Below, one piece after another: positions 5,742 to 55,982 of a stretch of DNA of 64,000 nucleotides. Each line of letters opens with the position of its first letter. Within the stretch, counting starts at the first letter, position 1. Source of the DNA: an uncultured Candidatus Saccharibacteria bacterium (GTDB taxonomy: Bacteria; Patescibacteriota; Minisyncoccia; Phycocordibacterales; Zambryskibacteraceae). Location: positions 8,276 through 72,275 of the forward strand of contig CAZDXF010000001.1 of the NCBI GenBank assembly GCA_964509605.1, read 5' to 3'. The notes under the pieces were generated by a model that saw only the letters and a program-made list of their open reading frames with translations, ran no database searches and was not told the origin of the DNA. The position numbers and the translations under genes were made by a program.

Positions 5742-5800
5742 AGCTGATGGAAGTACCTATTGTATTCTCTGTATTCTCACCACAGACTAGGAGGTTTATC

Positions 5801-6343
5801 ATGGCACTGCCCAAACGGGCATTTGAGCAAGACTTCGTACCTCCTCCGTCATTGACGGATGATGTTGGTAGGAAGAGGTCGAAAGGACCAAGGGGCGTTC
5901 TTCCTGTGGACAAAGAGATCGCACGCTCTTTCTCCAGGATGATGCTCATGGGACCAAAGAGCACTCGTGCCCCCTTCGTGCCGACGGCCGAAGTGGTGGA
6001 TCCAGAGCTCTTGGCGGCAGCTCTCGAGCATCCGGAGACCCTCGACGATCTTCCAGACGAGGAGGTGGATATCCACCCATTCTCGCTGGAAAACACCGGA
6101 GAGATCAGGATCTCCGCTCTCAGAGGAGACAGTCGAGAGACGCCCTTCGCCACACAAGATCTGGATGTGGCGGATGAGGATGAGCTTCCTGGTTTTTTCC
6201 CGGAGGCAGGGTTTCAGGTCTTCAATTCCGTTCACGACCTGGAGGAGAGAGACCGAAAGTTTCTCGATTCCGATCGCATGAGAGTCGAGAGGTGTTGCCG
6301 GAGGAACGGCATTCCTCTTTCCGATGGTGACGAGGACAACTAG
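5801..6343 (+). CDS. GC-rich acidic hypothetical protein (181 aa), foreign-looking cassette
   Basis: ATG at 5801, 7 nt after a perfect AGGAGG SD. About 58% GC against about 35% for the genome. Acidic, Pro-rich product MALPKRAFEQDFVPPPS...DEDN. Confidence 0.55.
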   Translation: MALPKRAFEQDFVPPPSLTDDVGRKRSKGPRGVLPVDKEIARSFSRMMLMGPKSTRAPFVPTAEVVDPELLAAALEHPETLDDLPDEEVDIHPFSLENTGEIRISALRGDSRETPFATQDLDVADEDELPGFFPEAGFQVFNSVHDLEERDRKFLDSDRMRVERCCRRNGIPLSDGDEDN

Positions 6344-6346
6344 GCT

Positions 6347-6411
6347 GTTCGAGAGCCAGCTCTCGAACTCCGAAGGGCGAGACGCAGGACGCGTCTCGCC
6401 CTTTCATCTTT
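6347..6411 (+). terminator. two consecutive GC-rich hairpins then T-rich tail (intrinsic terminator)
   Basis: GTTCGAGAG/CTCTCGAAC at 6347-6368, then GGGCGAGACGC-aggac-GCGTCTCGCCC at 6375-6401, then TTTCATCTTT. Confidence 0.6.
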
Positions 6412-6502
6412 CCATCAATATATTTCTGTCTACTGACTATTGTCTACTATTTTCTGTTTTTCTCATAATTCCTGATTTTTACCTTTCTGATATACTGTTC
6501 CC

Positions 6503-23911: not shown

Positions 23912-23930
23912 AAATACGACACAATAATAC

Positions 23931-23960
23931 TTGACAAAATGCCAAGTATTATGATATAAT
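23931..23960 (+). promoter_or_regulatory. near-consensus sigma70 promoter TTGACA-18-TATAAT
   Basis: TTGACA at 23931-23936 and TATAAT at 23955-23960, upstream of the GC-rich mini-ORF. Confidence 0.5.
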
Positions 23961-24025
23961 ATACACAGTACAGTTAAGCACACTCCGGTGTTTAACTGAG
24001 TTCCAACTCAAGGGGGAGGTGTACC

Positions 24026-24130
24026 ATGACCGCAGTCACGGTGAACGGCCAGCTGGTCCTGGTGTCGAGTGGCGCCTCGGTGGTCCAGGCCATGCTCCAG
24101 GCGGCCGAGGAGCGGGAGGCGGGGCGCTGA
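24026..24130 (+). CDS. GC-rich 34-aa ORF resembling the N-terminal half of ThiS/MoaD (possibly a gene fragment)
   Basis: SD GGGGGAGG 6 nt upstream. MTAVTVNGQLVLVSSGASVVQAML resembles the ThiS start (M-x-I-T-V-N-G-E). About 70% GC. Confidence 0.35.
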   Translation: MTAVTVNGQLVLVSSGASVVQAMLQAAEEREAGR

Positions 24131-24152
24131 CTCTCTAGCGCTCCACCTCAAA

Positions 24153-24195
24153 GGGCGAGTCAATCCGGAAGGAAAGACTCGCCCTTTATCATTTA
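24153..24195 (+). terminator. GC hairpin terminator
   Basis: GGGCGAGTC...GACTCGCCC followed by TTTATCATTTAT. Confidence 0.55.
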
Positions 24196-36797: not shown

Positions 36798-38081
36798 ATG
36801 GATTTAAAAAGATTAAACAAGTTTATCAACACAATCCCTGATTCTCCTGGAGTTTACAAGTTTAAATCTGGGAAAGGCATTCTCTATGTTGGAAAAGCAA
36901 GTTCTTTGAGAGATCGAGTCAGGAGCTATTTCGGGAAAGATTTAATGGGGGCTAGGGGACCGCTTATAGTGCGCATGGTTGAAGAAGCCAAAAGCGTTTA
37001 TTTTGAAAAAACAGACTCTGTTTTAGAAGCTCTTATTCTTGAAGCTTATTTAATAAAGAAACATAAACCCCTATACAACTCCAAGGAAAAAGATGATAAA
37101 AGCTACAATTATGTGGTGATTACAGACGAGGAATTCCCGAGAGTTCTCATAGTTCGAAAAAAGGAATTAGATAATGGCTTGCCCGTCCAAACCGCCTTGC
37201 GATTTGTGGCGGGTCCATTTCCTCATGGAAGTCAGCTTAAAGAAGCTTTAAAAATTATTAGAAAAATATTTCCTTTCCGAGACAAATGTACCCCTCTTCT
37301 AACAACTAAAAACTATAGGCTACAAGGCAAGATAAAGCCTTGTTTTAATCGTCAGATTGGTCTTTGCCCGGGAGTTTGTACTGGAGAAATAGATAAAAAG
37401 GAGTATGAGAGACAGATAAAGAATATAGAATTATTTTTCCAAGGAAAAAAGGATAAGATTTTGAATAATTTGGAAAAAGGAATGAAACTTTTTGCAAAAA
37501 AGAAAGAGTTTGAAAAAGCTGGAGAAATAAAAAAGAAAATTTTTGCCATAAATCATATTCAAGATGTCGCGCTTTTGAAAGATTCTCTAAAAGCTAACAA
37601 CTATAAACCAAAAACTAATTTCAGAATTGAAGCGTATGACATAGCGCATACTGGAGGCAAAGAAACTGTTGGAGTAATGGTGGTTATGGAAAATGGAGAG
37701 TTGAATAATGGTGAATATAGAAAATTTAAGATTCGCGGAGATGGAAAAGACAAAATTGATGATACAAAAAATTTGAAAGAAATTCTTGTAAGACGCCTCG
37801 GTCATGCAGAATGGAATTTACCAAACTTGATTGTGATAGATGGCGGTATTGCTCAAATGAATATTGCTAAAGAAACTTTAAGAGAAAGGAATTTTGATAT
37901 TGAAATTGTTTCTGTTGTAAAAGATGAGAAGCATAAGCCCAGAGAAATTTTAGGGAACAAAGGCAAGGTGAATAGATATGCAAATGATATTCTTTTGATA
38001 AACAATGAAGCACACAGGTTTGCCATTTCTTTTCACAAAAAGAGGAGAGGAGAACAATTTTTGACAAATTTCAAGAAGTGA
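36798..38081 (+). CDS. uvrC: excinuclease ABC subunit C (short form lacking C-terminal HhH)
   Basis: N-terminal GIY-YIG (GVYKFKSGKGILYVGKA), UvrBC-interaction region and an endonuclease domain. 427 aa. Confidence 0.8.
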   Translation: MDLKRLNKFINTIPDSPGVYKFKSGKGILYVGKASSLRDRVRSYFGKDLMGARGPLIVRMVEEAKSVYFEKTDSVLEALILEAYLIKKHKPLYNSKEKDDKSYNYVVITDEEFPRVLIVRKKELDNGLPVQTALRFVAGPFPHGSQLKEALKIIRKIFPFRDKCTPLLTTKNYRLQGKIKPCFNRQIGLCPGVCTGEIDKKEYERQIKNIELFFQGKKDKILNNLEKGMKLFAKKKEFEKAGEIKKKIFAINHIQDVALLKDSLKANNYKPKTNFRIEAYDIAHTGGKETVGVMVVMENGELNNGEYRKFKIRGDGKDKIDDTKNLKEILVRRLGHAEWNLPNLIVIDGGIAQMNIAKETLRERNFDIEIVSVVKDEKHKPREILGNKGKVNRYANDILLINNEAHRFAISFHKKRRGEQFLTNFKK

Positions 38082-38136
38082 TTTTCTTTTTTATAAACAG
38101 TTGACTTTTTAAGTTTAACTCTGATAGAGTGTAGTC

Positions 38137-38434
38137 TGGCGTGAGGGCCTGCTCTCTCGCCAACCGTCAGCGCAAGCTGGCAAGGGAAGTACACCTCGCG
38201 GTACACGCTCGAAAGAGCCTACGCGACCGCGAGCGGGGAAGGTCAAAAGTTGGTTTGCTCCCGCGAACCTGTGAATGCAAGGCGACTTCGGTTGCCAAAG
38301 CTATCCAGCTTCAAAGGAACGGTCTCCGGACCAAACAAACACAACACCTGCCTTTCCCCATCGGGACCGTCATCCATCGTGGTGGCGGCTCTTCTCTTTT
38401 ATGCAAGTTTCCCCGAAATTACGGGGATTTTTTG
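38137..38434 (+). ncRNA. GC-rich ~300-nt structured RNA candidate (unclassified) with own promoter and terminator
   Basis: TTGACT at 38101, then an extended -10. Hairpins with GAAA and UUCG tetraloops (GCUC-gaaa-GAGC, GGCGAC-uucg-GUUGCC) and long-range complementarity. Terminator CCCCG-aaatta-CGGGG plus T6 at 38411-38434. RNase P, tmRNA and SRP motifs are absent. Confidence 0.35.
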
Positions 38435-38457
38435 CTCACATTGTATATAATGCTTGT

Positions 38458-39441
38458 ATGACAACCAATATTCTCGGAATGGGCAAGATTCGTGTTGGCG
38501 TCCTTCGAGGCGGACCTTCGAATGAATATGATATTTCTCTAAAGACCGGTCAGTCTGTTTTAAGGCATTTGCCGGAAAAATATATTTCTCAAGACATTTT
38601 TATTTCTAAAGACGGAGAGTGGCATTTGGGCGGAACTCCGAAAACTCCCGAAAAAGTTTTTAGAAATGTGGATTTAATTTTTAATGCTTTACACGGAAAA
38701 TACGGAGAAGATGGCAGAGTCCAGAGCTTGATGGAGCAGTTCAGGGTGCCTTATACAGGTTCAACATCTCTTCCTTCGTCTATGGCTTTTAATAAAGCAC
38801 TTTCAAAAAAAAGATTTAAAGAAGTTGGGATAAAAACCCCTGTCTCAATAATATTCCAACCCCGTGATCATGTTAAAAAAAAGATTTTGGAACTTTTTAA
38901 ATTTTTTCCACAGCCATCGGTGATTAAACCAGTTTCTGGTGGTTCTTCGGTGGGTGTTTCTTTTGCACACGATTTTGAGTCTTTTGAAAAGGGGATTGAG
39001 CACGCTTTGAGGCATGGTGGAGTGGCTCTGGTCGAAGAGTATATAGATGGACAAGAAGCAGTAGTAAGTGTTTTGGAAAGCGCTTCTGGAAGAGAAGCTT
39101 ATTCGCTTTTCCCGGTTGAAATAAGAAAACCTCAAGAAAAAAAACTATTTGATTATGAGCTCAAGTATATTCAGCCGACAGAAAAAATTTGTCCCGGAGA
39201 ATTTCCTTCAGATGTAAAAGAAGAAATGCAAAGAATTGCTTTAAAGGCGTATAGATCATTGGGACTTAGGCACTATGCAAATATAGATTTGATTTTCCAT
39301 CCCAAAAGAGGAATTTATGTCCTAGAAGCAAATTCACATCCGGGTATGACAGCGACTTCTATATTTCCGAGATCGCTTCATACTGCTGGAATTTTGATGA
39401 GAGATTTTTTGGATCACCTTGTTATATCAGCTCAAAAATAA
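38458..39441 (+). CDS. ddl: D-alanine--D-alanine ligase
   Basis: ATP-grasp motifs. TATAAT sits 6 nt before the ATG, suggesting a leaderless transcript. The track ORF extends upstream only because the GC-rich region is poor in stops. Confidence 0.85.
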   Translation: MTTNILGMGKIRVGVLRGGPSNEYDISLKTGQSVLRHLPEKYISQDIFISKDGEWHLGGTPKTPEKVFRNVDLIFNALHGKYGEDGRVQSLMEQFRVPYTGSTSLPSSMAFNKALSKKRFKEVGIKTPVSIIFQPRDHVKKKILELFKFFPQPSVIKPVSGGSSVGVSFAHDFESFEKGIEHALRHGGVALVEEYIDGQEAVVSVLESASGREAYSLFPVEIRKPQEKKLFDYELKYIQPTEKICPGEFPSDVKEEMQRIALKAYRSLGLRHYANIDLIFHPKRGIYVLEANSHPGMTATSIFPRSLHTAGILMRDFLDHLVISAQK

Positions 39442-40437
39442 ATGAAATATCCGATAGTAATAAAACAAAGTCCGCTTGTTCTCATAAGGAGAATTATAGA
39501 GATGGAAATACTCATCTCAATATTTTTGTTCTTGGCTTCTTTTTTGACTAATTATGAGCAATTGTACAGATCTTTTACTTTTGGAAGAGTTTTGAGATAT
39601 GACATATTTCTTTTTGTAGCCGCCTCTATAATTCAACTCCTCATTACTGTTTTGGTGTTTTTTTACTGGCATTCCGAAGAATATAGAGTGAAAGAAAAAG
39701 AAGTGATGTACAGAAGGGGTTTTCTTGTAAGCAGAGAAAACTCAGTACTTTTGAAGAATGTTTCTTCTGTGGAATATAAGAGAAGTCCTTTGGAGTTCTT
39801 TTTGGGATACGGAACTATTATTTTAAAAACTAACAATGGCAATGAAACTTTTGCAATCAGAAGTGTAGATCAGGCAGAAATATATACCAACATTATAAAA
39901 GAGACTTTGCACTCCGCTTTAGATATGCCAGTGGAATCTCGCAAAAAGCTTTCCGTTTTAGATTTGATATTGGAGGGGGAGCACAAAAGATTGGAATTTA
40001 AACAAACTTTTAGGTGGGATTTGAAGAAAAAAATAATAAATAAAGACTTGGAAAGGTCTTCAATGAAGACAATAGCAGCTTTTTTAAACTCAGGAGGCGG
40101 AAATTTGCTTATTGGCATTGCTGACAACGGCACGGTTTATGGTTTGGAAGACGATATCGCCACTTTGGTGAGGAAAGATAAAGATGGTTTTGAAAATCAT
40201 TTTAATCAAGTTTTTAAAACGACCATTGGAGCTGAATTTAGGGAGTTTGTGGAATTGTCTTTTCAAAATATAGAGGAAAAAGAAGTTTGTTTGGTGGAGG
40301 TCAGGGGAGCTAAGAAGCCAGCTTTTCTGAGAGCAAATGGCGACGAAGAATTTTTTATAAGAACAGGAAACACCACAACTCCTCTAAAAATAAGCGAGGT
40401 TAATTCTTATATAGAGTCGCATTGGAACGGTGGCTAG
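39442..40437 (+). CDS. membrane-anchored protein: TM + bacterial PH-like + AlbA_2 (Schlafen-like) domain
   Basis: Two TM helices and a bPH_2-like middle region. The C-terminus RLEFKQTF...IAAFLNSGGGNLLIGIADNGTVYGLEDD matches the AlbA_2 / divergent-AAA core. Confidence 0.5.
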   Translation: MKYPIVIKQSPLVLIRRIIEMEILISIFLFLASFLTNYEQLYRSFTFGRVLRYDIFLFVAASIIQLLITVLVFFYWHSEEYRVKEKEVMYRRGFLVSRENSVLLKNVSSVEYKRSPLEFFLGYGTIILKTNNGNETFAIRSVDQAEIYTNIIKETLHSALDMPVESRKKLSVLDLILEGEHKRLEFKQTFRWDLKKKIINKDLERSSMKTIAAFLNSGGGNLLIGIADNGTVYGLEDDIATLVRKDKDGFENHFNQVFKTTIGAEFREFVELSFQNIEEKEVCLVEVRGAKKPAFLRANGDEEFFIRTGNTTTPLKISEVNSYIESHWNGG

Positions 40438-41394: not shown

Positions 41395-41490
41395 CTAGTC
41401 CCTTGGCAACTTTGGGGTAAAAGCGCACAGTACTTGGCCATAGACCAAGATGTGAACAGTCGTCTGACCGTTCAATTTGCCGTTGCTCAT
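41395..41490 (-). CDS. GC-rich 31-aa ORF, translationally coupled (ATGA) to upstream 74-aa ORF
   Basis: SD AAGGAGGG 6 nt upstream. MSNGKLNGQTTVHILVYGQVLCAFTPKLPRD shares the NGQ-plus-hydrophobic pattern with the 24026 peptide. Confidence 0.35.
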   Translation of the reverse strand: MSNGKLNGQTTVHILVYGQVLCAFTPKLPRD

Positions 41491-41711
41491 TTCGCACCCT
41501 CCTTTTTTGTTCCCATCAAATCCTCTTTTTGAGCCATGAGATCCAGAACAGCTAGGCAGTTCCTGCAGGTGATGAGTTCTTCCTGAACAAGAGCTCCAGC
41601 ATACTTGTCCAGAGAAGGCCAGCTCTTGTCGTCCTTCGGGTTGAGACCGCAAAGCGTGATGCCGTCTTCAAGTCCATGAATCTTGCCGACACTTAGGTAT
41701 TCAATCGACAT
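41487..41711 (-). CDS. GC-rich 74-aa Cys-containing hypothetical protein
   Basis: SD GGGAGAG upstream; C22, C49xxC52. About 55% GC. Confidence 0.45.
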   Translation of the reverse strand: MSIEYLSVGKIHGLEDGITLCGLNPKDDKSWPSLDKYAGALVQEELITCRNCLAVLDLMAQKEDLMGTKKEGAK

Positions 41712-55761: not shown

Positions 55762-55962
55762 ATGACAGATTTAAGCCAGCTGAGCCTCTTGGCTCAGATT
55801 ATCAGTTGGCGGATTGATGAGGGCAAGTCGTGCGTTCACTGTGGCAGTCCTGCTTACGTGAACCCAGAACACGAAGACATTTGGGGTTGTCCGGAGTGTC
55901 TTTTTGTCACGGCATCCCACAATGTCTTTTTCAGGAATTCTGTCGTATCAACCACCCAGTAG
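55762..55962 (+). CDS. 66-aa Zn-ribbon protein (CxxC...CxxC), GC-elevated with SD
   Basis: SD AAGGGGA 5 nt upstream; CVHCGSPAYVNPEHEDIWGCPEC. Confidence 0.45.
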   Translation: MTDLSQLSLLAQIISWRIDEGKSCVHCGSPAYVNPEHEDIWGCPECLFVTASHNVFFRNSVVSTTQ

Positions 55963-55982
55963 TTTGGGTGGTTGTTGTTTTA
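55951..55982 (+). terminator. hairpin terminator
   Basis: ACCACCCA-gtagtt-TGGGTGGT followed by TGTTGTTTT. Confidence 0.6.

Follow-up and report, generated by a model that had tools for sequence, protein, structure and literature searches.

A Candidate Orphan Structured RNA Gene in the uvrC-ddl Spacer of Zambryskibacteria-like Patescibacteria

Introduction

Patescibacteria, which are also called the Candidate Phyla Radiation (CPR), have tiny, densely packed genomes, and to our knowledge almost no lineage-specific noncoding RNAs (ncRNAs) have been described for them. Herein, we report on a GC-rich, highly structured RNA of approximately 300 nucleotides that is predicted to be encoded between uvrC and the D-Ala-D-Ala ligase gene ddl in a 64,000-nucleotide stretch of contig CAZDXF010000001.1 (hereafter the window). 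We call it W-type RNA, and its copy in the window W. The best matches to the proteins of the flanking genes (UvrC, Ddl, and a bPH_2-SLFN_AlbA_2 fusion) come from metagenome-assembled genomes labelled Candidatus Zambryskibacteria, Paceibacteria, or Patescibacteria.

Several known RNA systems share features with W-type RNA. 6S and Ms1 RNAs are strongly expressed and stable, and their sequences drift quickly while their structures are kept, such that they are recognized mainly by synteny and fold. W-type RNA is likewise predicted to be strongly expressed and stable, drifts in sequence with its structure retained, and is recognized by synteny and fold. Attenuating leaders and riboswitches offer a second comparison, given that W-type RNA lies upstream of a gene in the same orientation and has an intrinsic terminator after a structured domain.

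A third comparison is with the orphan ncRNAs of the GC-IGR/DIMPL kind (GC-IGR, GC-rich intergenic region), which include raiA motif RNA, OLE, ROOL, and GOLLD. W-type RNA resembles these in occupying a long GC-rich intergenic region of an AT-rich genome, which is the criterion used by the pipelines of the Breaker laboratory (PMC8723152, PMC11109978), and also in its multi-branched fold, GNRA tetraloops, noncoding character, and compensatory changes. However, it matches none of these families in Rfam 15 by sequence or structure, is much narrower in distribution (three lineages), lacks conserved core nucleotides, and resides in a spacer that carries different RNAs in relatives. Finally, RNase P RNAs from CPR bacteria can be difficult to recognize. 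In 10 of 35 circular CPR genomes, RNase P RNA was detected only with RF00010 thresholds far below noise, and absent or lengthened helices are common (Lui et al. 2021, PMC8172020). W-type RNA is comparable in that it comes from a CPR genome, is approximately 300 nucleotides long and GC-rich, has variable helices, and is not seen by Rfam models at curated thresholds.

Results

A Structured RNA Under Selection for Its Fold

Our analyses indicate that nucleotides 38137 to 38435 of the forward strand very probably constitute a genuine, structure-constrained ncRNA gene. The GC content is 37% across the window but reaches 53-62% over positions 38100 to 38400, and it is 56-62% in the body of the RNA. 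The forward strand folds with a minimum free energy (MFE) of -126.7 kcal/mol (z -4.67), and none of 100 shuffled sequences is as stable, which agrees with the proposal of the first-pass annotation that this is a GC-rich structured RNA. Because the fold of the reverse strand is weaker (z -2.2 only) and because many G-U pairs are present, we assign the RNA to the forward strand. The predicted features of the RNA gene are as follows.

38101 to 38130, + strand: promoter-like site, with -35 sequence TTGACT (38101 to 38106), an 18-nucleotide spacer, TG (38122 to 38123), and TAGAGT (38125 to 38130)
38137 to 38435, + strand: predicted transcript of approximately 300 nucleotides, with its 5' end placed by the spacing from the -10 sequence and its 3' end at the U-run of the second terminator
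38137 to 38162, + strand: H1, a 10-bp hairpin with loop CCUG and double-sided changes in 3 of 11 pairs
38166 to 38181, + strand: H2, the hairpin GUCAGC-GCAA-GCUGGC with a GNRA loop, 100% paired in the alignment
38182 to 38188, + strand: 5' strand of PA (AAGGGAA), the purine-rich half of the helix closing a four-way junction, which pairs with 38392 to 38398
38195 to 38233, + strand: H3, an 8-bp stem with an internal loop and a GCUC-GAAA-GAGC tip
38235 to 38359, + strand: H4, a long arm with outer helix GGGGAAGGUCA/UGCCUUUCCCC and inner helix 38249 to 38257/38336 to 38345
38363 to 38391, + strand: H5, an 11-bp hairpin formed by GGGACCGUCAUC...GGUGGCGGCUC
38392 to 38398, + strand: 3' strand of PA (UUCUCUU)
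38410 to 38434, + strand: intrinsic terminator T, with hairpin UCCCCG-AAAUUA-CGGGGA (38410 to 38427) followed by A and UUUUUU (38428 to 38434)

Orthologs of this RNA were found by way of the Ddl homologs P0002 and P0003 (83% identity), whose contigs carry the gene order uvrA-uvrC-spacer-ddl-bPH/SLFN. The RNA is present in the spacers of the orthologous loci L001/L002 and L003, which span 326-358 nucleotides between the called uvrC and ddl genes, and approximately 365 nucleotides to the true ddl start codon in L003. Among W, L001, and L003, the identity of the RNA body is 0.60-0.72. For comparison, the ddl genes of these loci are 0.76-0.82 identical overall and 0.48-0.57 identical at third codon positions, which are near saturation.

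Despite this divergence, independent MFE predictions for the three RNAs yield one topology (z -4.67, -4.68, and -5.17). The tree-edit distances among the three folds are 52-81, compared to approximately 204 for dinucleotide shuffles (0 of 200 as close), and random mutation to an equal level of divergence produces distances of 194-210, with the fold lost in every case (0 of 200 keep it). In a MAFFT alignment (A2), 87.7% of the cells for paired positions hold standard pairs, compared to 40-51% when the pairing partners are slid. The same alignment contains 12 double-sided pairs versus 1-5 upon sliding, and no shuffle among 500 reaches the observed values. A structure-guided alignment reveals 17 compensatory pairs, concentrated in H1, H3, PA, and H4; this count derives from three lineages and from a structure predicted from the same sequences. 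Thus, as expected for an independent ncRNA gene, the fold is kept by compensatory substitutions, and selection is shown to act on the fold rather than the sequence within this small clade.

The individual elements differ in their degree of preservation. The H2 loop reads GCAA, GCAA, and GUAA in the three orthologs. The stem of H3 holds five compensatory pairs in the structure-guided alignment, and two of the six PA pairs show double-sided changes, including one position that appears as AU, GC, and UA. H4 encloses a variable branched hairpin (38259 to 38318) with a UUCG tip at 38281 to 38296, as well as a hairpin called H8 (38321 to 38332); its topology is alike in L001 and L003, and its interior is the least alignable part of the RNA. 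Helices capped by GNRA or UNCG loops are kept, and the loops and junctions otherwise drift. Neither the ortholog alignment nor a k-mer search revealed a conserved single-stranded seed or a conserved core.

The three tetraloop hairpins listed in the first-pass annotation are all present, namely GCUC-GAAA-GAGC at 38207 to 38218, GGCGAC-UUCG-GUUGCC at 38281 to 38296, and GGUC-UCCG-GACC at 38321 to 38332. In contrast, the long-range pairing between CAAGCUGG and CCAGCUU that it proposed does not stand. The nucleotides CAGC-GCAA-GCUG form the local GNRA hairpin H2 in all three orthologs, and L003 lacks the CCAGCUU partner. A pairing between 5' GUGU and 3' ACAC that emerged from RNAalifold was also discarded; it competes with the covarying helices H4 and PA, and we reject it because GUGUAGUC sits between the -10 sequence and the likely start site.

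The candidate gene has its own conserved promoter and intrinsic terminator, both called by consensus scan. The TTGACT hexamer at 38101, the extended -10 sequence (TG-n-TAGAGT, 38122 to 38130), and a terminator near 38411 to 38434 had been recognized before, and each was recovered here. W, L001, and L003 all carry TTGAC and TGATA-AGT without change, and identity among the three is 81-91% in the promoter region and 88-92% in the segment containing the terminator and the ddl promoter. H5 together with the U/C-rich tract that follows it scores as a first terminator-like site, making T the second. A covariance model built from the three orthologs (R1) matches W from 38129 to 38435. By sequence inspection, no terminator lies in the interval between uvrC and the RNA promoter.

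Coding Potential of the RNA Region

The embedded open reading frames (ORFs) at 38141 to 38461 and 38250 to 38450 exist and, as noted previously, lack a coding signature; moreover, they are not conserved in L001/L002 or L003. Across W, L001, and L003, ORFs in the RNA region vary in both frame and length. Similarity detected by tblastx is confined to the promoter and terminator ends, where it occurs in all frames and includes stops. Thus, the region holds no conserved ORF, as anticipated for an independent ncRNA gene.

We consider it extremely improbable that the locus is instead a small protein gene or a dual-function RNA, whose near-leaderless ORF would begin at the GTG at 38141 and end at a TGA (38459 to 38461) overlapping the ddl ATG. 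This possibility gains some appeal from the facts that a GTG occurs at the equivalent position in all three orthologs, that approximately 16 N-terminal residues can be aligned (M-R/G-..-RQRKLA), and that other GC-rich islands of the window do encode small proteins. However, the frames part after residue 16, giving products of 106 amino acids, an in-frame fusion to Ddl, and 50 amino acids, and the orthologs are separated by indels of 1, 2, 6, and 7 nucleotides. There is no frame-specific tblastx similarity in the body of the RNA, and the alignable N terminus coincides with H1 and H2, which carry compensatory RNA changes. Furthermore, the 106-amino-acid ORF has no Shine-Dalgarno sequence and no Pfam match, and it would span both a terminator and a promoter.

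Comparison with Known RNA Families

Covariance searches with Rfam 15 were conducted both at the gathering score and at E <= 10. At the gathering score, the whole window yields three tRNAs, none of which lies in the RNA region. At E <= 10, no meaningful match was obtained for W, L001, L003, or the related loci L021 and L026, where the leftovers are generic hairpin-plus-terminator matches to anti-hemB (14-22 bits) and Pxr (17.7 bits). The earlier view of the locus as an unclassified ncRNA forming an independent unit therefore holds up, given that no Rfam family is matched even at E <= 10, that orthologs keep the fold through compensatory change, and that the ORFs are not conserved. We regard W-type RNA as a new orphan structured ncRNA that is narrowly distributed.

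The absence of RNase P, tmRNA, and signal recognition particle (SRP) motifs, also reported in the first-pass annotation, was borne out by a motif scan in which all matches are at the level of shuffled sequences. ARAGORN identifies no tmRNA, Rfam finds neither tmRNA nor SRP RNA, and the tRNA-like domain and tag ORF of the former and the helix 8 GNAR loop and GGAAGCAGC motif of the latter match at chance level. A T-box signature is matched no better than in shuffled sequence, and Rfam gives no T-box or riboswitch match. UGUAGUC as an SRP Alu U-turn and 5' AGUCC as conserved region CR-I of RNase P were each considered and set aside as chance 7-mers in the wrong structural context.

A highly diverged housekeeping RNA, either an aberrant CPR-type RNase P RNA or a 6S/Ms1-like polymerase-binding RNA beyond the reach of Rfam models, might have the length of approximately 300 nucleotides, the GC-richness, the strong promoter, and the fast sequence drift seen here. 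Because CPR RNase P RNAs often score far below Rfam thresholds (PMC8172020), this possibility was also checked by motif and helix order. RF00010 and RF00011 give no match at E <= 10 in W, L001, L003, L021, or L026, in output where hits below approximately 10-15 bits, the range that Lui et al. had to admit, are not listed. For P4 of RNase P, comprising CR-I (GAGGAAAGUCC) and CR-V (ACAGAA...GGCUUA), as well as for CR-IV, the best matches contain 3-5 mismatches, the same as in shuffles, and the best CR-I, CR-IV, and CR-V matches fall at non-homologous positions in the orthologs. The helix order, with two free 5' hairpins followed by a junction of hairpin, long arm, and hairpin, is incompatible with the P1, P4, and P7-P10 cruciform arrangement, and neither P1 end pairing nor a P4 pseudoknot is present. 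Similarly, W-type RNA differs from 6S RNAs in that its MFE structures branch several times and leave the 5' hairpins outside the closed domain, rather than forming a rod with an end-to-end closing stem and a large central bubble; no 6S model is matched at E <= 10 in the same five RNAs. In addition, W-type RNA is dispensable at this locus in relatives: it appears deleted in L004, is absent here from four other relatives, and is replaced elsewhere, which would be unexpected for an essential RNA. Taken together, we judge a diverged housekeeping RNA to be very improbable.

Relationship to ddl Expression

Upstream and downstream of the RNA are the following features.

36798 to 38081, + strand: uvrC, the upstream neighbor (Pfam UvrC_RNaseH_dom and GIY-YIG)
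38446 to 38460, + strand: ddl -10 sequence and start, with TATAAT (38446 to 38451), a 6-nucleotide gap, and ATG (38458 to 38460), in leaderless-mRNA geometry
38458 to 39441, + strand: ddl (D-Ala-D-Ala ligase), the downstream neighbor, identified by Pfam

The true ddl start is the ATG at 38458 rather than that at 38275, in accordance with Ddl homologs of approximately 320-330 amino acids. The public Ddl protein P0001 (388 amino acids) begins at 38275 and is therefore over-extended by 61 codons into the RNA gene, and the start of P0003 (340 amino acids) is likewise slightly over-extended. The over-extension is likely to be a gene-caller artifact of a GC-rich RNA that is poor in stop codons. On the 3' side of ddl, the gene for the bPH_2-SLFN_AlbA_2 fusion (window positions 39442 to 40437) is strictly syntenic across the clade, and its product is 89-90% identical to those of the closest relatives, above the 83% observed for Ddl.

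Of 14 related loci, 13 have a TATAAT-like hexamer exactly 6 nucleotides upstream of the ddl start codon (the window, L001, L003, L004, L012, L014, L016, L017, L020 to L022, L030, and L031), the exception being L026 with 9 nucleotides. Because this geometry, which is a consensus prediction rather than a mapped start, occurs whether or not the RNA is present, including in the RNA-less loci L004, L020, and L030, we propose that ddl has its own promoter downstream of terminator T. No Shine-Dalgarno sequence precedes ddl in these loci, and the whole clade appears to transcribe ddl into a leaderless mRNA.

These findings bear on the possibility that the RNA is a cis-acting leader or attenuator, perhaps riboswitch-like, that sets how often transcription from the RNA promoter continues into ddl and the bPH/SLFN gene. 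The first-pass annotation already considered a ddl leader less likely, and the present results weaken that reading further; we regard it as quite improbable. The RNA is always on the ddl strand, directly upstream, and terminator-ended, and the H4 5' strand (CGGGGAA) is complementary to the 5' strand of the terminator (UUUCCCCG) in W, with similar complementarity in L001 and L003. However, an attenuating leader would not be expected to have a promoter for the gene between the terminator and the ATG, as is predicted here. Moreover, no mutually exclusive terminator and antiterminator were found. Terminator T pairs with a probability of 0.97-1.0 in the full-length context, and forcing its 5' strand to pair upstream costs 5-13 kcal/mol. 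When transcripts are cut just before the 3' strand of T, the 5' strand finds no conserved competitor and does not pair with H4. An antiterminator formed by the 5' strands of H4 and the terminator was therefore rejected, being favored neither energetically nor kinetically, and T is predicted to be constitutive.

A riboswitch would also be expected to have a highly conserved ligand-binding core across distant species. The body of W-type RNA is only 60-72% identical among the closest relatives, gives way to unrelated folds elsewhere, and has no conserved aptamer core. The RNA is absent from relatives in which ddl is unchanged, such as L004, which keeps the ddl promoter. Thus, a riboswitch or attenuator reading is poorly supported, because ddl has a predicted promoter of its own and because the terminator has no competing structure.

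Turnover of the uvrC-ddl Spacer

Fifteen loci were gathered from genome representatives via the downstream bPH/SLFN protein, and 13 of these keep the order uvrC-ddl-bPH/SLFN. Ddl homologs provided six further lineages (L012, L013, L014, L030, L031/L032, and L033), and a search of genome contigs with the single Ddl protein found no relatives. The R1 model, applied to 243 kb of related loci, detects only W and a 13-bit match in L017. The RNAs of L017 and L027 share the general plan of W-type RNA (tree-distance z -2.4 and -2.6 relative to W), line up in a five-way alignment, and are probable distant relatives. The H5 hairpin sequence GUCAUCC...GGUGGC also recurs in L017 and L026/L031, and H5 is the only segment of the RNA body in W with detectable similarity to L017 and L026.

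Beyond these loci, the DNA pattern GTGTAGTCYGG-N20-34-GCGYAAGCTGG gave six matches in metagenome contigs, all of them false positives in one GC-rich coding gene, and two pattern scans of viral contigs produced a single chance match in a coding region. The family is narrow, comprising three orthologous lineages.

The uvrC-ddl spacer proves to be a hot spot of turnover, ranging from 37 nucleotides to 1.4 kb across relatives, and this behavior is a more unusual observation than the RNA itself. The spacer is essentially empty in L004, L018, L020, L023, and L030. In L004/L005 (P0004; Ddl 62%), only 39 nucleotides separate uvrC and ddl, and because these resemble the 3' half of terminator T, deletion of the RNA gene is suggested. 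One stable module of 160-330 nucleotides is found in each of L012, L014, L017, L019, L022, L024, L025, and L027, and a 186-amino-acid ORF occupies the spacer of L013. Most spacer modules are unusually stable (z -3.5 to -6.8). Rfam provides no family match for them, and a k-mer search for a motif common to all spacer RNAs returned terminator-type tracts only.

Some spacers are larger or composite. Noncoding stretches of 575-800 nucleotides in L016 (2080 to 2880), L021 (2125 to 2850), and L026 (2360 to 2935) have consensus promoters, many GNRA-capped hairpins, no ORF of more than 87 amino acids, and no Rfam match, and are candidates for large ncRNAs. In L031 (1 to 731), the 3' end of a large RNA resembling that of L026 is followed by two complete modules in tandem, each with a promoter, structured body, and terminator. 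L033 (1 to 532) has at least two modules, and the units of L031 and L033 are unlike each other in sequence. L024 (2630 to 2840) and L025 (2625 to 2830) contain an RNA-like module of approximately 200 nucleotides that is richer in AT (40-45% GC), is 64% identical between the two loci, and looks unrelated to W-type RNA. The uvrA-uvrC spacer is also expanded to 0.6-2 kb with GC-rich inserts in L012 (6067 to 6650), L013 (6708 to 7373), and L014 (6399 to 8405), and that of L012 includes a small hydrophobic ORF (approximately 6346 to 6495).

Such turnover suits the main rival explanation, which is that the RNA has little or no cellular function and may be a GC-rich insertion, selfish or in decay, that a permissive spacer tolerates. 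A related version holds that the fold matters only locally, as an elaborate device that terminates or insulates the uvrABC operon, or by interfering with transcription from the ddl promoter. The spacer may hold nothing, one to three tandem modules, or an ORF; the apparent remnant of terminator T in L004 suggests simple gene deletion; the window has other GC-rich islands with their own promoters; and polymerase at the ddl promoter would, by geometry, overlap terminator T. However, it is the fold and not just the GC content that is kept across lineages whose ddl third codon positions are 48-57% identical, and the compensatory changes in H1, H3, PA, and H4 are far from the terminators. The near-consensus promoter is also retained, no repeats are apparent, and blastn searches with the RNA give no match to phages or plasmids and no second copy in the window. 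Moreover, a terminator or insulator would have no need for 270 nucleotides of conserved multi-branched structure. On balance, we view these low-function explanations as rather unlikely.

Other GC-Rich Islands in the Window

Additional GC-rich islands are present in the window. The island at 23930 to 24190 (GC up to 72%) has a TTGACA...TGATATAAT promoter, a 5' hairpin, a strong ribosome-binding site (GGGGGAGG), a terminator, and a 34-amino-acid ORF (24026 to 24130; MTAVTVNGQLVLVSSGASVVQAMLQAAEEREAGR), and has no Rfam match. The region from 5747 to 6410 (GC up to 64%) carries a 198-amino-acid ORF, for which an AGGAGG ribosome-binding site and, at 6375 to 6405, a strong terminator are evident. 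Two further islands are small ORFs rather than RNAs: 55763 to 55970 (+ strand) codes for a 66-amino-acid, Cys-rich, zinc-ribbon-like protein and is followed by a terminator, and 41487 to 41711 (- strand) corresponds to a 74-amino-acid ORF.

Discussion

If the predictions above are correct, a strong sigma-70-type promoter with an extended -10 sequence would drive synthesis of W-type RNA, and two successive intrinsic terminators would end it just before a separate leaderless-type ddl promoter. The RNA would fold into the 5' hairpin H1 and the GNRA-capped hairpin H2, followed by a four-way junction that is closed by PA and carries the GNRA-tipped H3, the long branched arm H4, and the 3' hairpin H5. 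The product may be a discrete, abundant, and stable RNA that acts in trans through its three-dimensional shape, and our best guess is that it most likely serves as an abundant, nuclease-resistant protein partner or scaffold. We favor trans action by shape because there is no conserved seed, no catalytic or ligand-binding core, and no coupling to ddl, while the capped helices are kept. Seed base-pairing, small-molecule binding, and cis regulation of ddl are less likely.

Our confidence in the existence of the RNA gene does not extend equally to this full proposal. That W-type RNA is a lineage-specific ncRNA gene of a Zambryskibacteria-like Paceibacteria clade within the CPR, and that it also acts in trans, is a combined statement that we advance tentatively, at somewhat short of even odds. 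Several points weigh against it. The promoter, the start site, and both terminators are known only as predictions from consensus sequences. Covariation statistics from three lineages are weak, and the sequences used for the test are also those that yielded the structure. At this site the RNA is lacking from L004, which is the nearest outgroup, and from four other relatives, such that it is either dispensable there or has moved, and the high turnover of the spacer fits a weak or transient function. Finally, the step from RNA gene to trans-acting protein binder is a guess reached by exclusion; no protein partner is picked out by gene content, which is the same in loci with and without the RNA.

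Nonetheless, we argue that the RNA does something, because approximately 300 bp, a near-consensus promoter, and two terminators are spent on it, and because its fold is kept by compensatory change. A more speculative idea, which we regard as fairly improbable, is that W-type RNA belongs to a single class of abundant structured RNAs that evolves very fast, is specific to a Paceibacteria/Zambryskibacteria clade, and is always located between uvrC and a leaderless ddl gene. Members of such a class may share the extended -10 promoter, with a body that expands, contracts, and duplicates over a range of 160-800 nucleotides, and some may share a 5' hairpin and GNRA hairpin, a PA-type helix, and the terminal GUCAUCC...GGUGGC hairpin. 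If so, turnover under a kept structure would point to a lineage-specific arms-race or symbiosis function, and the class would represent a new kind of CPR ribonucleoprotein rather than a housekeeping RNA.

Among relatives, different stable RNAs are found at this site, beside an essential cell-wall gene with a leaderless-type promoter. If confirmed by transcriptomics, W-type RNA would offer structural and functional studies a new class of orphan RNA, and it would expose an annotation error in the public protein set, where ddl reaches 61 codons into the RNA. The spacer would then also offer a concrete locus at which to follow the birth, divergence, and death of ncRNA genes in reduced genomes.

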